The notes under the pieces: generated by a model
Seen by the model: the letters and a program-made list of their open reading frames with translations, nothing else
Database searches by the model: none
Told to the model about the DNA's origin: nothing
Assembly (NCBI GenBank): GCA_963755455.1
Contig: CAVWJH010000001.1
Span: 146,864-210,863, forward strand
Length of the DNA stretch: 64,000 nt
DNA from: an uncultured Verrucomicrobiae bacterium
GTDB lineage: Bacteria; Verrucomicrobiota; Verrucomicrobiia; Limisphaerales; UBA11358
Reading direction: 5' to 3'
Position numbers and translations under genes: made by a program
Shown here: positions 14,003-21,000 of the stretch, one piece after another
Layout: each line of letters opens with the position of its first letter
How positions within the stretch are numbered: position 1 is the first letter of the stretch

Positions 14003-14233
14003 AAATCAAGAAATCAAATGACATTAAAATTCGGGGGCGCGAACCCGCTTGTCCTCAATTGAGGAAAAGTAAATTGTTTTGGCCCCCGGTGCAAATGTCT
14101 TATTGAGCTTGCGGAGTCGCTCGTCGGTCGGCGTGGCTCAACTTTGGATTGTTAGGAGAAGTTTTTTTATGGCCGGAGTGCTGCGATTCTTTCACGCGAA
14201 ATGAAATCAGCATTTATTACACGGCAGAAAATT

Positions 14234-15088
14234 TCACTGCGTCTTTCCCGCCGGTAATTCAACCACCATTCCCTCCTTCGCGGCGTCCACTTTCATTTTT
14301 GACTTCGCCTTCGCCACGAGTTTGCGCGCGTGCTTCACAAAGCCGTCAATTTTTTTGTCGTCGCTGTCGGGGTCGTGGTGAAAGAACAGCAGTTTTTTCA
14401 CGTTCGCCTTTAGCGCGAGCGCCACGGAATCGTCCACGCAGCCGTGCCCCCAGCCGATGTGTTTTTTGTATCCCGCCCGGTCGAATTGCGAGTCGAGGAT
14501 GAGCAGGTCGGAGTCGCGGACGAACTCGGCCATTTCCCGGTCCACGCCGCCGATGTGCGGCTCGGTGTCGGGGAAAAACGAGACGATGCCGTCGGGCGAA
14601 AACAGCCGGTAGCCGACGCACATTCCCGGATGGTTCGCGCGCAGCGCCCGCACGATGACCGGGCCGATGTCGAAGTTGAAGTCCTTGAGTTCCTCGATCT
14701 GGATGTTGCTCGGCAGCCTGTCGAACGCCACGGGAAAATAGGTGCTTTCCATCTGGCCGGTGAGCATGGCGGACAATCCCTTGCGCGCGTCCTGGCAGCC
14801 GATGATCCTCAACCGGCAGCGCGGATCGTAAATCGGCGGAAAAAACGGCAGCCCCTGGATGTGATCCCAATGCGTGTGCGTCAGCAGCATCGTCAGGTTC
14901 AGCGGCTTGTTCCTGTATGTCTTCAGCAGCGCGGCACCAAGCTGCCGCAATCCCGTGCCGGCATCCAGGATGATGATCTCGCCGCCCGCGCGGATTTCGA
15001 CGCAGGTCGTGTTGCCGCCGTAACGCACCGTGCCCGGCCCCGGCGTGGAGATCGAGCCGCGCACGCCCCAAAATTTAACGCGCATCAC
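14234..15088 (-). CDS. MBL-fold metallo-hydrolase
   Basis: VKFWGVRGS...ILDAGTG...LLTHTHWDHIQGLPFF...FFHHDPDSDD (HxHxDH motif). Confidence 0.85.
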   Translation of the reverse strand: MMRVKFWGVRGSISTPGPGTVRYGGNTTCVEIRAGGEIIILDAGTGLRQLGAALLKTYRNKPLNLTMLLTHTHWDHIQGLPFFPPIYDPRCRLRIIGCQDARKGLSAMLTGQMESTYFPVAFDRLPSNIQIEELKDFNFDIGPVIVRALRANHPGMCVGYRLFSPDGIVSFFPDTEPHIGGVDREMAEFVRDSDLLILDSQFDRAGYKKHIGWGHGCVDDSVALALKANVKKLLFFHHDPDSDDKKIDGFVKHARKLVAKAKSKMKVDAAKEGMVVELPAGKTQ

Positions 15089-15204
15089 GCGCGGATGAAA
15101 ACATCTTTCCGGGCGGCATGGAAGAAAAAACGTGGGACAGAATGATTTAACCGCCCTGTGATTTTTCTCCGCGCTTTTGCGCCTTTGCGCTAAAATCCGC
15201 GCCT

Positions 15205-15977
15205 ATGTCTGACGGCCCAAAAAAATTCCGCATCGGCTCGGTGCAATTATCTGAACGCCGTGCCGCTCACGCGCGGCATCGAAAGCGAACTCATTCTCGC
15301 CACGCCCGCCAAGCTCGCCGAAATGCTCCGGCGCGATGAACTGGACGCCGCGCTCGTCAGCATCACCGAGGTTTTGCTCAACGACCGCTACGACATTCTG
15401 GACGGCATCGCCATCGCGTCGCTCGGCGAAGTTTACAGCGTCCTGCTCGCGCACAAAAAGCCGCTCGCGGAGGCGAAGGAAATTTTCTGCGACACCGCGT
15501 CGCTCACGAGCGTGAATTTGCTGAAAGTTTTGCTCGCCGAGAAAAATCTGTTTCCGCAATTCGTGCCGCTGGAAAATTACGAAGCCGCGCCGGAAAAAGA
15601 TTTCGTCCTGCTCATCGGCGACCGCGCGATTGATTTCCAGCGCGCGCCGCATGCGCACGAAATTTTCGACCTCGGCTGCGGCGTGGACGGAATTGACGAA
15701 TCTGCCCTTTGTTTATGCGGTCTGGGCGCTGCGGCGCGGAATTGAAAACAAGGAATTGCGCCGCGAATTGCGCGAGGCGAAAAGTTTCGGCATGGAAACT
15801 TTGGATTACCTCATCGAAACCCGCGAGGAATATGACGAGGATTTCCGCCGCGATTATCTCGGCTGGCAGATCCATTATCATCTCGCGACGGACGAAAAGC
15901 GCGGCATCGCAAAATTCTGCGAACTCTTGCGGAAGCACAACCTCGGCCCGGTGTTTGAACCGAAATTTGTTTCGTAG
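15205..15977 (+). pseudogene. mqnA: Chorismate dehydratase MqnA-like (futalosine pathway), two frame disruptions (near 15245 and 15675)
   Basis: KFRIGSV|.YLNAVPLTRGIE...AKLAEMLRRDELDAALVSITEVL...GEVYSVLLAHKKPL...DTASLTSVNLLKVLL...|AAWTELTNLPFVYAVWALRRG. Confidence 0.7.
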
Positions 15978-16049
15978 GAGACGGAGGTGACAGAGTCTCA
16001 AACTTGTTTTTCTTGGGACAATAATGAGTCTCGTCACCTCGACTCCTAC
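15974..16049. repeat. REP-like hairpin GTAGGAGACGGAGGTGACAGAGTCTC / GAGTCTCGTCACCTCGACTCCTAC between convergent genes
   Basis: Arms of ~24-26 nt (15974-15999 and 16026-16049) around a 26-nt loop. The TAG of mqnA (15975-15977) and the CTA of the minus-strand gene stop (16046-16048) are both inside the arms. A related single copy TGTAGGAGCCGAGGTTACGAGGCTC lies at ~52255. Confidence 0.65.
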
Positions 16050-16805
16050 GTTTCCCTTTCCAACTTCGCCAGCGTTTCGGGATCACGCACATCCACCCAG
16101 CGGCCCTGGATTTCCAGACCGGCGAGTTTTTGTCCGGCGGCGATGAGCGCGCTGATGGCGTCGGTCAGTTCATATTCGCCGCGCGGGGATTTTTGCAGGC
16201 GCGACGTGAATTCAAAAATCGCCGGACGAAAAATATAAATGCCCGCGTTATACCACGCCGGAACGCCGGGCTTGAGCCAGCCTTCGCGGCGCAATTGCTC
16301 CAACTGTTCGGGCGACGGTTTTTCCACGAGCCGTTTCAGGCAGAATTGTTCGTCAAAAAAATTCAGGCCGCCCTTCGTCACGTCCTCGCCGGGCGTGACG
16401 GTGATGACGCCCGCAAAATCGCCCTCGCCAAAACGCCGAAGCATCTGCGGATACGTTTCGCGGCGCGACGAGGATGTCGCCGTAAGTCAGCAGAAACGGC
16501 GAGTCGCCGACAAAATCCTTCGCGAGTTCCGGCGCCTTGCCCGTGCCGTCCTGAACGAGCTGCCGGCCAAAGGAAATCTGCGCGCCGAATTTTTTGCCGT
16601 CGCCGAAATGATTTTCGATCACGTCCGCTCGAAAACCCGTGACAATGAAAATATCTTTGATTCCCGCCGCGACGACGCCGCCGACGATGTGTTCGAGGAT
16701 CGGTTTGCCCGACACGCGGAGCATGGGCTTGGGCAACTCACTGGTGAGTTCCCGCATGCGCGTGCCTTTGCCGGCGGCGAGGATGACGGCTTTCATTTCA
16801 ACCAC
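16046..16805 (-). pseudogene. Sugar-phosphate nucleotidyltransferase family protein, one frameshift near 16450
   Basis: MKAVILAAGKGTRMRELTSELPKPMLRVSGKPILEHIV...LLTYGDILV| then ...GVITVTPGEDVTKGG...WYNAGIYIFRPAIFEF...SPRGEYELTDAI. Confidence 0.75.
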
Positions 16806-16822
16806 AGATGAACAGCGTGAAC

Positions 16823-17605
16823 TTAATTCTGTGCAAATTTGATTATCTTTCGCTGAAAATCTTCCGTTGCATCCAGCGATGAAACCATCTCTCCACCCAC
16901 GTTTGATAGTCGTGCTAAATCTGTGCGGGGAATCACTTGTTGATCCTGAAATATGAGGAGCGAATCAAATTCCACCTTTGCACGCAGCCAATGCTCCAAA
17001 ATGATAGTTACGAGACGCGCTTTGTCACGGGTTGCAACGCCAAATAAAAACAAGGGCGCACGCTTGGCTTCGACTCGGAAATCAATTGGATAACTGTCAG
17101 CTTCCGCGTGATCCGGCAGAGTGTAGTCTTGTTTGATTTTTTCCGGGGCAACCAAACTATAAAGTCTCTCTTTCAAATCTTCGTAAAAAGTGCTCGCCAC
17201 CCATGAGCGATTCAAAAATGTCAGATCATAAATTCGCGCCAGAGCTTGACCAAACTGAAGAACATTCGTGCCTAAACTATCTAGGCTAGAGTCGAGGACA
17301 AGCCTGCCTTGTTCGTCCCGCAAACCTGAATCAGCCAAAACTTGATCCAATAATTTTCCACGAGTGCCTTCGCGAAATTTGGCGAGATCGTTTTCATAAC
17401 TCAAGTGCATGAAAGTGTGTCCAAAATCAGTAAGACGAACACTTCCTGCTGCCGCTTCTTCAAGATAAAGCTGAAACGTATCACCGTCAGGAAATGTAAA
17501 TGGGGTTACGATTTGCAGATAACCTTGGCGCGTGGTTCGCACTTGAACCTCGCCGCAAAGCGACTTGCACAGCCGCTCTTTTAATTTGGGCAGGTCAAAA
17601 GTCAT
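16823..17605 (-). CDS. Uncharacterised 260-aa protein (from memory resembles the DUF1828/DUF1829 architecture; needs an HMM check)
   Basis: Intact ORF. The N-terminus reads ...LQIVTPFTFPDGDTFQLYLEEAAAGSVRLTDFGHTFMHL. Its ATG overlaps the upstream stop (ATGA at 17602-17605). GC is lower than the flanks. Confidence 0.6.
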   Translation of the reverse strand: MTFDLPKLKERLCKSLCGEVQVRTTRQGYLQIVTPFTFPDGDTFQLYLEEAAAGSVRLTDFGHTFMHLSYENDLAKFREGTRGKLLDQVLADSGLRDEQGRLVLDSSLDSLGTNVLQFGQALARIYDLTFLNRSWVASTFYEDLKERLYSLVAPEKIKQDYTLPDHAEADSYPIDFRVEAKRAPLFLFGVATRDKARLVTIILEHWLRAKVEFDSLLIFQDQQVIPRTDLARLSNVGGEMVSSLDATEDFQRKIIKFAQN

Positions 17606-18123
17606 TGGAATAGTTCTGGATGATCAGGTTCTGCTTCGAGACCTGCAATGTTGCAATCTGCCATCAAGCGATGCAATGCGCCGCTACACGTTTGATAAGA
17701 ACCGGCAGCTTCGGCAAAGCCGTCAGGCTTCCTATTCGCTTGGATGTATCGCTCGGTTGTCCGATGAATATGGCAAACGAATTCAAGACGGATGCCTTCG
17801 AGTCGGTTTGGGTGACTGTGACTCGAACCGTTGTAACGCGCTAAAATCAATTCTTCGCCGCCAGCGGGCAACCACTGGAGGCCACAAGAAAAATCATCAC
17901 TAATTGTTTTGTTCTGTCGCACAAACAAACGAAACCGTTCGCTACCATCCAAACTTTCGACAATATACTCATGTTTGTCATGGTTCGCATCTGTGACATT
18001 TCTCGCAGTGGGATTTGAGACGCGCTTGGGCATGAGCAAAAGTTGCCCGATGCGCTCGTCTGTTAAAGATTCAAAAGCCATAACGCGATGACGGAGCGTA
18101 ACTAACTCATCCCGCACGGACAA
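17602..18123 (-). CDS. Uncharacterised 173-aa protein, first gene of a two-gene low-GC module
   Basis: Intact ORF with His-rich motifs ARYNGSSHSHPN and FVCHIHRTTERY. No family recognised. Confidence 0.6.
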   Translation of the reverse strand: MSVRDELVTLRHRVMAFESLTDERIGQLLLMPKRVSNPTARNVTDANHDKHEYIVESLDGSERFRLFVRQNKTISDDFSCGLQWLPAGGEELILARYNGSSHSHPNRLEGIRLEFVCHIHRTTERYIQANRKPDGFAEAAGSYQTCSGALHRLMADCNIAGLEAEPDHPELFQ

Positions 18124-18200
18124 TCAGAAATTAATCAGCCACAACATGGCTAAAATTCATTTGGCAAACAATAACTGTTCGTTTCGCGTCCGCGAGCGGC

Positions 18201-19102
18201 TTAAAACTTCGTCAGCTTTTCCAGTTCCTTCACGCGCTTTTCGATGTCGGCGCGTTTGATCTTGGTCGTGCGCGTTCAGGCCGAATCCTTCGCAGCAGAA
18301 CGACGCGGTGACGCTGCCGTAAATCATCGCGCGCCGGATGTTCGCGTCAATCGCGCCCTTGGCCGTCGCCAGATAATCCCATCATGCCGCCGACGAACGA
18401 ATCGCCCGCGCCGGTCGGGTCCACGACCTTGTGCAGCGGATACGCCGGGCAGATGAAAAATCCCTTCGGCCCGGACAAGATCGAGCCGTGCGAACCTTTT
18501 TTGATGATGACGTATTTCGGGCCGAGCTTGTGGATTTTTTTCAGCGCGGCGAAGACGTTGTCTTCCTTCGTCAGCTGATGCGCCTCGCTGTCGTTCAGCA
18601 CAAAGCCGTCAATGCGCGGCAGCAGTTTCAGCAAATCGGCGAGCGCGATGTTCAGCCACAAATCCATCGAGTCGGCCACGACGAATTTCGGCTTCTTCAT
18701 CTGGTCGAGCACGCGATGCTGGAGCGCGGGCGCGATGTTGCCGAGCAGCACGAACTGGCGAGTTTTGATACGACTGCGGCAGCGTCGGCGAAAAAGTTTC
18801 GATCACGCCGAGTTCGGTCGCAGCGTGCGGCGGTTGTTCATGTTCAATTCGTATTCGCCCGACCAGTGAAAAGTTTTGCCCGGCAAAATCTGCAGACCTT
18901 CGAGATCAATTTTGTGCCGGCGATAAAGCTCGATGTATTTTTTCGGAAAATCCTCGCCGACGCCGCCGACCAGTTTCACCGGCGAAAAAAAACTCGCCGC
19001 GACCGCCGCGTGGCTGGCCGAGCCGCCGAGCAGGCGCGGATTTTCCGCCGTCGGAGTTTTGATGGAATCGAGTGCGGTGGTGCCGACAATTAAAACGCTC
19101 AT
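18201..19102 (-). pseudogene. PfkB-family carbohydrate kinase, at least 2-3 frame disruptions
   Basis: MSVLIVGTTALDSIKTP...GGSASHAA..., LNDSEAHQLT..., VIIKKGSHGS..., VVDPTGAGDSFVGG (PfkB signature), then a tail ...ADIEKRVKELEKLTKF* in another frame. Confidence 0.75.
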
Positions 19103-19155
19103 GGATTAGTTGATAGTTTATGAGTTGAAAGTTGCGAGCAGGAAAATCGGGGCAT

Positions 19156-19540
19156 TTACTTTTTCTGGATCAATTCAATTTCATAGCCTTCCGGCGCGTC
19201 AATGAAGGCGAAGGTCGTGCCGCTGGAACTGGTCGTCGGGCCGTCGGAAAATTTCAGGCCGTGCTTGGCGAGGTGTTTGGCAAATTCGTCGAGGCTGTCC
19301 ACTTCAAACGCGAGGTGCGTCAGATCGGGCTGGCACTTTCACCGGCTCGCTGCCGGGAAAATAGCAGATTTCAATCTCTTCCTCGCTGCCGGGCGCTTTC
19401 AGAAAAACCAGTTCCGAGCCGCGCGGCGATTTGTGCCGCTTGACTTCTTCCAGGCCGAGAACGTCGCGGTAAAATTTCACCGTGCGTTCCAGATCATTCA
19501 CGCGGTAGCGCGTGTGCAGTAGTTTTCCAACTTTGCTCAT
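19156..19540 (-). pseudogene. VOC/glyoxalase family protein, one frameshift near 19335
   Basis: LLHTRYRVNDLERTVKFYRDVLGLEEV...ELVFLK...EIEICYF, then in another frame ...LTHLAFEVDSLDEFAKHLAKHGLKFSDGP...FIDAPEGYEIELIQKK*. Confidence 0.7.
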
Positions 19541-19553
19541 GCGCGAAATTTAA

Positions 19554-19640
19554 CCAGTCCAACAGTCCAAAGTCCAATGTCCAAAGTCGGCGCAGGTTGT
19601 TGACTTTGGACTTTAGACTTTGGACTTTAGACTTTAGACT
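19554..19640. repeat. Heptamer-periodic hairpin (AGTCCAA units / GACTTTG-GACTTTA units) in a divergent promoter region
   Basis: Left arm cagtccaacagtccaaagtccaatgtccaaagtc and right arm gactttggactttagactttggactttagactttagactt. It lies between the VOC start (19540, minus) and the nusB start (19647, plus). Confidence 0.85.
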
Positions 19641-19646
19641 TGATTT

Positions 19647-20145
19647 ATGGGCAAACGACGTGAAGCGCGCGAACGCGCGGTGCAATTTCTGTTTCAGCAC
19701 GACCTGAACCCGCCGGAAAATCTTGAACTGGAACTGGCGCACGTTCTGGAATTCCCAGCGCGCCGCCGCCATCGAGGACGAAAAAGGCGCGGCGCATTGG
19801 GGCGAAGAAATCGAACTGCCGCCGCCGACCGCCGAGGAGGCCGAGACGCGCCTGTTCGCCGAGCCGCTCATCCGCGGCGCGCTGGAACATCGCGACGCGA
19901 TTGACGAAAAAATCAAAAGCCACGCGAAGAACTGGGATTTTCACCGCATCGCCGCCGTGGACCGCAACATCATGCGGCTGGCGATTTACGAAATGCTGCA
20001 TCGCGAGGACATTCCGCCCGTCGTCAGCATCAACGAGGCGGTGGACATCGCCAAAAAATTTTCCACGCAGGACAGCGGCAAATTCGTGAACGGCATTCTC
20101 GACAAAATCCGCGGCGAAATTCTCCGGCCGGCGCGCAACTGTGAA
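19647..20145 (+). pseudogene. nusB: Transcription antitermination factor NusB, one frameshift near 19740; no stop before the next gene in the current frame
   Basis: MGKRREARERAVQFLFQHDL... then ...[50 protein letters not shown]. Confidence 0.8.
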
Positions 20146-20951
20146 ATGAAATTCGCCGATTTACATCTGCACACGCAGTTTTCCGACGGCACGTTCACGC
20201 CGGAGGAACTGGTCGGTGCACGGCGCAGAAGCTCGGCTTGGCGGCATCGCGCTGACCGACCACGACACGGTCGAAGGCTGCGCGCGCACGGCGGCGGCGT
20301 GCGCGGCGGTGAAGATGGAATTCATTCCCGGCACGGAACTCACCGCCGAACACGACGACACGGAAGTCCACATCTCTCGGCTATTTTCTCGACACGCAAA
20401 ACCAGAAATTGCTGGCGGAAATCGCCAAGTTCCAAGTCCGTCCGGCAGAACCGCATCCACGAAATGGTCGCGGCGCATGAACAAGCTCGGCGTGCCGCTC
20501 AAGGCCGAATCGGTTTTCGCGCTGGCCAATTGCAAATCGCCCGGCCGCCCGCACGTCGCGCGCGCGCTGGTGAAGGCCAGACTCGATCGGCAATCTGGAC
20601 GAGGCGTTTGAGCGGTTTCTGAAAAAAGGCCGGCCCGCGTGGGTGCCCAAGACCAAAATGTCCGCGCTCGAAGGCATCGAATTGATTCATCAGGCCGGCG
20701 GCCTCGCGGTCATGGCGCATCCCGGCTTGAACCGCACGGACGACATCATTCCCGACCTCGTGGACGCCGGGCTGGACGGCATCGAATGTTTTCACACGAA
20801 ACATTCCACCGTGATGTCCGAGCGTTATCTGGAAATTGCGGAAAAATATGATCTGCTCGTCACCGGCGGCAGCGACTGCCACGGCTTCAGCAAAAACAAG
20901 CCGCTCATCGGCACGGTGAAACTGCCTTACGAACACGTTGAAAGACTGTAA
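20146..20951 (+). pseudogene. PHP domain phosphoesterase (TrpH/YciV-like), at least 5 frame disruptions
   Basis: [23 protein letters not shown] / [12 protein letters not shown]...FIPGTELT / [13 protein letters not shown] / RQNRIHEMV / [12 protein letters not shown] / LIHQAGGLAVMAHP...GIECFH...VTGGSDCHG are spread over all three frames. Confidence 0.8.
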
Positions 20952-21000
20952 AGCCGCGAAAAAATCCGCCGATCGAAAAACGCGCAGCATCGCAAAATAG

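Follow-up and report, generated by a model that had tools for sequence, protein, structure and literature searches.

A two-gene cassette of an uncultured Verrucomicrobiae bacterium as a putative divergent, horizontally moving branch of the candidate family PDC-M24

A guilt-by-embedding study (Payne et al. 2024, bioRxiv 10.1101/2024.01.29.577857) put forward genes that occur inside BREX, DISARM and type I restriction-modification (R-M) loci. One of its candidates, nominated on account of such embedding, is PDC-M24, given in the supplement as cassette CAS_00098 (FAM_00129>>FAM_00065). As a comparator PDC-M24 is a catalogue entry only, namely a DUF6978 protein followed by a DUF1828-DUF1829 protein. 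We report here on a pair of adjacent genes, called A and B in what follows, which lies in a stretch of 64,000 nucleotides (nt) from an uncultured Verrucomicrobiae bacterium (assembly GCA_963755455.1, contig CAVWJH010000001.1, positions 146,864 to 210,863 of the forward strand; the whole stretch is hereafter called the window). The pair is almost certainly a true homologue of the PDC-M24 cassette, and it appears to represent a divergent subfamily of it, in the form of a self-contained two-gene operon that moves horizontally.

In phage lambda, rexAB is a two-gene abortive-infection (Abi) module transcribed with cI in the lysogen, and lysogen-protecting genes occupy that position. Type II toxin-antitoxin (TA) operons are usually arranged with the antitoxin gene first; the likeness of the window pair to these is one of operon form only, that is, two small, coupled and mobile genes. 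Among systems with a DUF1829 protein, only HipAD/PDC-M66 has been tested, in which HipA is encoded together with a DUF3037-DUF1829 partner (DS-6/HipAD, PMC13092281; PADLOC PDC-M66 in a Retron-Sda1 operon, PMC12548924); there the first gene encodes the toxin and the second a protein with DUF1829 that neutralises this toxin, deletion of the second gene being toxic (PMC12548924, PMC13092281). HipAD is likewise a two-gene defence module of the same PDC catalogue, and its larger second protein has DUF1829 as canonical PDC-M24B does; it differs from the window pair in that its toxin, a kinase of the HipA type, has no relation to A, and in that the N-terminal domain of the partner is DUF3037 and not DUF1828. 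A further system is the TumE-TumA superfamily (DUF6516/PF20126), whose member TumE has been proven to be a toxin that inhibits translation (Durairaj et al. 2023, PMC10584680). TumE resembles A in its small size (~140-160 amino acids, aa), in an alpha+beta fold that includes an antiparallel sheet, in having no solved relative, and, according to our own reading of the sequences, in a loose common motif, an acidic or polar residue followed by His and further on by (P)HxH; the difference is that the partner of A is a 260-aa DUF1828 protein and not a small helix-turn-helix (HTH) antitoxin.

The coordinates of all features are collected in Table 1. A first-pass annotation, made from the letters of the window, had described two intact minus-strand open reading frames (ORFs) overlapping by 4 nt (ATGA), and both are present as described; the overlap is predicted to couple the translation of A and B. 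The size of 260 aa that it gave for the downstream protein also stood, but not the 173 aa for the upstream one. The longest ORF of A (17602-18123, minus strand) begins with TTG at 18123, and because MAFESLTD opens every one of the 29 A homologues aligned and gene callers assign 159 aa to A on contigs of sister strains from other samples (L054-L057), the true start is most likely the ATG at 18081, and the 173-aa form is an over-extension. The resemblance to PDC-M24 concerns the presence of two genes in the same order, their sizes (~150-160 and then ~255-260 aa) and the 4-nt overlap, the homology of A to DUF6978 and of the first 150 residues of B to PDC-M24B, and also the low GC content, sporadic distribution, carriage by phages and presence of a canonical copy in the same genome. 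The differences are that A of the window is missed by the PDC-M24A models and falls under the Pfam cut-off for DUF6978, that the C-terminal 110 residues of B are not recognisable as DUF1829, and that no R-M or BREX locus surrounds the window copy.

The N-terminal part of B, in which the DUF1828 domain is joined to a helical region, gave the clearest matches. DUF1828 (PF08861) of Pfam was matched at 73 bits (E = 2e-20; cut-off 22), with residues 34-125 spanning the whole model, in agreement with the first-pass annotation, which had likened the beginning of the second protein to DUF1828-type proteins. The PDC-M24B models of PADLOC also matched (PDLC04540 at E = 1.2e-17 and PDLC04539 at E = 4e-17) over residues 8-196 only, and among phage protein families B belongs with phrog_5059 (E = 2e-35). 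When residues 4-150 were compared with nine canonical B proteins by hhalign, the alignment was obtained with Prob 98.7% and E = 4e-16, and the last 110 residues gave no alignment with canonical B in the same kind of comparison (Prob 1%).

A appears to be a diverged DUF6978 protein. Its own score against Pfam DUF6978 (PF22398) is 22.2 bits (E = 1.9e-4), which is under the gathering cut-off of 29.6 bits; most close homologues of A carry the PF22398 tag in the precomputed table, and a phage homologue 49% identical to A reached 46 bits, above the cut-off. When the profile of the clade to which the window copy belongs (the window-type clade) was compared by hhalign with eight DUF6978 proteins of the canonical kind, the alignment covered 136 columns (Prob 94%, E = 9e-8), the motifs being in register. 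A search of 1.8 billion representatives with the A profile found 1381 clusters at E <= 0.001, the best 150 matches being mostly ~150-170 aa long, and the window-type clade comprises ~80 clusters (50% identity) at E <= 1e-30, which were found in Verrucomicrobiota, Bacteroidota and Pseudomonas phages. A also matches phrog_27326 (E = 1e-50), and NCBIfam gave no match for it.

The His-rich motifs to which the first-pass annotation had drawn attention in the first protein turned out to be the most conserved part of the family, with the form RYNGSSHxHPNxLE...CHIHxATERY. In the alignment of the 29 homologues, H88, E95, H104 and H106 are invariant, the paralogue included, and H90, N92 and C103 are near-invariant; this cluster of His and Glu residues with a near-invariant Cys resembles a metal site. 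The AlphaFold (AF2) model of A (pLDDT 90.8) consists mostly of an antiparallel sheet with three helices. Foldseek found no solved relative of this model in PDB (best E = 0.66), phmmer and profile searches of PDB returned nothing for A or B, and the sole match of A in BFVD was an uncharacterised siphovirus protein. Domain fusions of A were not informative, since the longer proteins were over-called starts or one A-B deletion fusion.

Conservation of the pair in other genomes had been named in the first-pass annotation as a point on which its proposal of a TA or anti-phage pair should stand or fall, and in 19/19 loci, from 96% down to ~25% identity, B was found directly behind A on the same strand and either abutted or overlapped it. 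The divergence of A runs parallel to that of B (Mantel r = 0.82, 0/2000 permutations), a result that shows joint inheritance and no more because the sequences are related to each other. The distribution is patchy: a homologue of A is present in 3/101 species genomes of the genus, and in the phylum (401 genomes) the A profile matched 8 and the B profile 13, the five extra B matches comprising three with a canonical A missed by the profile, one cut by a contig end and one apparently solitary B. Only 4 of 50,697 phage records have a homologue of A, and none was found among 72,556 plasmids.

Some individual copies are worth recording. A B-like protein of 264 aa (L073 1309-2100, G307:C1) has no recognisable A within 400 nt upstream and may be a solitary B. 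In another locus (L029/L063, G259:C95:37-1144) an in-frame TGA lies within A and B is intact; this is a single case at a contig edge, and if such cases proved recurrent, they would fit A as the toxic partner. The genome that holds the window (G000) has in addition a canonical PDC-M24 pair (C4:686956-688088; L008 1165-2375, minus strand), also with an ATGA overlap. Its A has 149 aa (DUF6978 E = 6e-48, PDC-M24A E = 3e-60), and its B has 254 aa with DUF1828 and DUF1829 (PDC-M24B E = 1e-105); this pair has a GC content of 41.8% against 55-58% in its flanks and is located between ThiS/MoaD-like genes and the threonine synthase gene.

Horizontal acquisition of the window pair, which had been proposed at first pass, is well supported by sequence comparison, because GC content, codon usage and GC content at third codon positions (GC3) are foreign, the distribution is patchy, the cassette occupies another site in a relative, and the spacer concerned takes cargo in other relatives. 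The GC content in 300-nt windows is 45-50% within the pair and 57-62% in the flanks, so the low GC noted earlier is borne out, and GC3 is 0.41-0.45 against 0.77-0.83 in neighbouring genes. For the cassette as a whole the GC content is 46.7%, the genome mean being 55.5% (z = -2.4), which places it among the lowest 2.2% of windows of 1.3 kb. In a different species of the genus (G581), the cassette is located after mqnA and not between the genes for a PfkB-family sugar kinase (PfkB) and a nucleotidyltransferase (NTase) that flank it in the window, and blastn against the window gives it an identity of 89.6% over 1297 nt, the adjacent core genes reaching 76.4%. The moving unit would consist of the two genes with 26 nt upstream and 11 nt downstream, because the identity with G581 spans exactly 16812-18107. 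The cassette is without a recombinase, and neither direct nor inverted repeats were found at its ends; a duplicated PfkB 3' end was also not found around it, though one relative (G017) has such a duplication there. Downstream of the cassette of G581, a 145-aa HTH protein is encoded (L059 2892-3329, G581:C10), with weak PAX and HTH_28 matches like the N-terminus of an IS630-type transposase.

The spacer between the PfkB and NTase genes appears, from the comparison of genomes, to be a cargo hot spot within the genus. It holds a TA pair of DUF433 and DUF5615 (PIN-like) and two other genes in G003 (L019 1701-2359, G003:C9), and an IS1-family transposase in G011 (L020 2830-3429, G011:C3); G010, G012, G006 and G009 have no NTase at this position. 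The cargo of G003 includes a 242-aa lipoprotein-like gene. In the corresponding spacer of G017 (L022 1780-2215, G017:C5, equivalent to window 16806-18200), a lone DUF433 antitoxin-like gene lies on the opposite strand, with a copy of the final 33 nt of PfkB on either side, GTGAAGGAACTGGAAAA(G/A)CTGACGA(A/G)GTTTTAA. On one contig of the sister strain (L054 3695-4329, at about window 19103-19160), a VapBC-like pair of an 84-aa and a 127-aa PIN protein is present between the glyoxalase and PfkB genes, and the window is without it.

As for function, the pair is probably an anti-phage defence or TA-type conflict module; the case is circumstantial, resting on the homology to PDC-M24 and on the position after cI in Pseudomonas phages. 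Three temperate phages of Pseudomonas (5399, phita81A and 5371) carry the pair, with 49% identity to the window protein for A and 39% for B; there it is located directly after cI, which encodes HTH and S24 peptidase domains, on the same strand. This position is equivalent to that of rexAB in lambda and would be the slot of rexAB-type lysogen defence genes, and we regard it as the most telling context. With RexAB itself there is no sequence relation and no predicted structural relation, and RexB is a membrane protein, whereas A and B are not membrane-like. In the same phylum an MmeI-type R-M gene precedes canonical copies, and genes for AIPR, HinfI or Uma2 are found close to some window-type copies.

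According to the mechanism that we propose, the cassette would have been inserted, without a recombinase of its own, in the short spacer between the PfkB and NTase genes, and A and B would be produced together by coupled translation and act as a complex. A would be the toxic or effector enzyme, with a compact alpha+beta fold and an invariant His/Glu cluster beside a near-invariant Cys, and B the partner that restrains A and releases or assists it upon phage infection; the outcome would be an Abi-type defence, which would also stabilise the cassette in the manner of a TA pair. The assignment of A as effector and of B as neutraliser or sensor is tentative. We favour A over B for the effector role because A resembles a rigid enzyme and not a labile antitoxin, and because of the polarity of HipAD, in which the toxin is encoded first. 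The picture as a whole, in which the window-type clade would be a distinct PDC-M24 branch missed by PADLOC, A a His/Cys/Glu toxic enzyme of a new fold, B a protein whose C-terminal domain has been exchanged, and the system an Abi system on a promoter-poor, recombinase-free cassette of 1.3 kb, is offered as a possible combination with the same reserve.

Several observations weigh against a defence or TA role and against this division of labour. The study that catalogued the 145 PDC systems describes them, PDC-M24 included, as untested candidates (10.1101/2024.01.29.577857). Association of the window locus with a defence island, which the first-pass annotation had suggested looking for, was not seen; the flanking genes are those for PfkB, NTase, mqnA and nusB, as its description of a module between housekeeping genes had implied, and most window-type copies are solitary among housekeeping or metabolic genes. 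No PADLOC family, including the PDC-M24A models, matched A at E <= 1, and the same was true of the homologue of A from Gillisia. With Pfam at E <= 5, DUF1829 was seen neither in the whole of B nor in the C-terminal half taken alone, and the analogy with HipAD is indirect and weakened because B of the window has no detectable DUF1829. Pfam and NCBIfam found no HTH, RHH or AbrB domain in A or B, which leaves B without a recognisable DNA-binding antitoxin domain. A link of A to TumE was also pursued, with alignments of 6 genome loci and 20 database homologues, and was not borne out: PF20126 was not matched at E <= 1, and hhalign gave Prob 0.2-0.3% against window-type and canonical DUF6978 proteins; the TumE profile was thin (Neff ~3), and a very remote link may still exist. 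Furthermore, the His/Cys cluster of A could be a structural zinc site instead of a catalytic one, and, judging from its model, B itself could be the effector.

The last point leads to a polarity opposite to the one preferred above, in which B would be a sensor-nuclease effector with DUF1828 as its sensor or regulator, and A a small metal-binding regulator, activator or inhibitor; we consider this doubtful. In the AF2 model of B (pLDDT 84), the C-terminal part is alpha/beta, and the Foldseek matches in PDB, namely Cdn1 (prob 0.99), SfsA (0.98), AF1548 (0.95), R2 RLE (0.91) and Can2 (0.7), put this domain near PD-(D/E)xK nucleases and two-domain sensor-nucleases, so that it looks restriction-endonuclease-like. 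These matches are weak (E = 4e-3 to 0.1, TM-scores 0.25-0.38). B may be an effector because acidic residues are kept in the nuclease-like fold: D143 and D175 are invariant, E142, E146, D194 and K195 are near-invariant with D or E at position 194, and in the model D143 is in the helix preceding strand 2, D175 opens that strand, and D194-K195 follows strand 3. Against this, the third strand reads PLFLFG and has no canonical (D/E)xK. The small first gene would fit the antitoxin-first order of type II operons, but A, globular, rigid and highly conserved and with an invariant cluster such as enzymes have, differs from the typical labile antitoxin, and it is the DUF1829 protein that acts as neutraliser in the HipA/DUF3037-DUF1829 system (PMC12548924).

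A plain addiction or selfish cassette, kept since its loss is harmful and having no anti-phage role, is in our judgement unlikely; it would accord with the compactness of the cassette, its want of a recombinase, the solitary situation of most copies among housekeeping genes, and the fact that the site takes TA genes in relatives (DUF433/DUF5615 in G003 and G017, and the VapBC-like genes nearby in the sister strain). It is harder to reconcile with the presence of the pair behind cI in the lysogeny operon of three phages, with the embedding of the canonical family in R-M and BREX loci, and with the MmeI-type neighbour in this phylum; moreover, it overlaps with the defence reading because many TA modules have proved to be defence systems. 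Quite improbable is a function in the service of phages, such as anti-defence, superinfection exclusion or help in lysogeny, the chromosomal copies then being prophage remnants: both proteins have PHROG families, intact temperate phages carry the pair, and the best structural match in BFVD is a phage protein, but no phage genes lie beside the window copy or the other chromosomal copies examined, carriage among phage records is as rare as stated above, and genes expressed together with cI as a rule shield the lysogen, which in effect amounts to defence. That the pair does housekeeping work connected with the adjacent sugar kinase and NTase may practically be discounted. The three genes are co-directional and the gap between B and the NTase gene (~26 nt) makes co-transcription likely, but 98/101 genomes of the genus are without a homologue of A, several relatives in the genus have the PfkB and NTase genes adjacent with other cargo or almost nothing between them, homologous pairs occur in unrelated contexts, the codon usage is foreign, and a consistent co-occurrence with PfkB and NTase across phyla was not seen.

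What appears to be new here is a clade in which A escapes the PADLOC models and the C-terminal domain of B has diverged or been replaced, together with a clear move of a cassette between species at a cargo hot spot. Should a defence function be established for PDC-M24-type pairs, the family would gain with this clade members that escape the present detectors, since the models of A fail and there is no DUF1829 signature, and the pair, compact and presumably soluble, would be suited to work on mechanism; as it stands, the locus adds one more copy of a catalogued candidate. The fold of A has no solved relative. The locus also documents the recombinase-free entry of small conflict cassettes at the ends of core genes in soil Verrucomicrobiota.

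Table 1. Positions in the window of the cassette, its two genes and the adjoining features
Feature	Position	Strand	Description
Transferable cassette	16812..18107	-	Two genes with 26 nt upstream and 11 nt downstream; shared with the G581 copy
Gene A	17602..18081	-	159 aa, putative diverged DUF6978-family protein; from the ORF list and homologue starts
Gene B	16823..17605	-	260 aa; DUF1828 N-terminal half and alpha/beta C-terminal part of ~110 aa
ATGA overlap	17602..17605	-	Stop codon of A inside the start of B
Leader	18082..18200	-	119 nt from the PfkB stop codon to the ATG of A; hairpin 18135-18153, then a T-rich run
Upstream flank, PfkB-family sugar kinase	18201..19102	-	Four single-base indels near 18276, 18374, 18759 and 18819 (aligned to G017 and sister contig L054)
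Downstream flank, nucleotidyltransferase (NTase)	16046..16805	-	Begins ~26 nt past the B stop; one inserted base near 16460

The leader of the pair is only 80% identical to that of the sister strain, against 96% for the genes. A consensus scan of the leader gave no convincing site for a sigma-70-type promoter. The hairpin in the leader reads TTAGCCA-TGTTG-TGGCTGA on the minus strand and could be the terminator of PfkB or an operator.

The genome holding the window consists of 4 contigs with a marker completeness of only 65.6%, and the quality of its assembly bears on the flanking genes. The first-pass annotation had described these genes as frame-disrupted and the module as intact; the disruptions themselves are present (four single-base indels in the PfkB gene and one in the NTase gene), but the contrast with the module was rejected as a matter of biology or selection, since the sister assemblies carry every gene intact. 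On the sister contigs, whose B protein is 99% identical, the same locus has an intact PfkB gene of 299 aa and an intact NTase gene of 249 aa, and the nusB, PHP and glyoxalase genes are intact likewise; PfkB is also intact in relatives of the genus. Because sister strains have the same locus with intact genes, we read the breakage as a property of the assembly, and the broken flanks are most likely assembly indels due to a context-dependent, systematic long-read error and not pseudogenes. Intact genes of 0.85-1.3 kb are also present near the module in the window itself. Compared with L054, the flanking genes of the window have ~4 single-base indels per kb and the cassette has 0. Over window 14100-21000, which is 86-96% identical to the sister contig, ~25 single-base indels were counted, clustered in the PfkB and nusB/PHP genes, and nearly all indels of the flanks are insertions in a GC-rich context, for example GCGC[A]CG and GGCG[C]AT.

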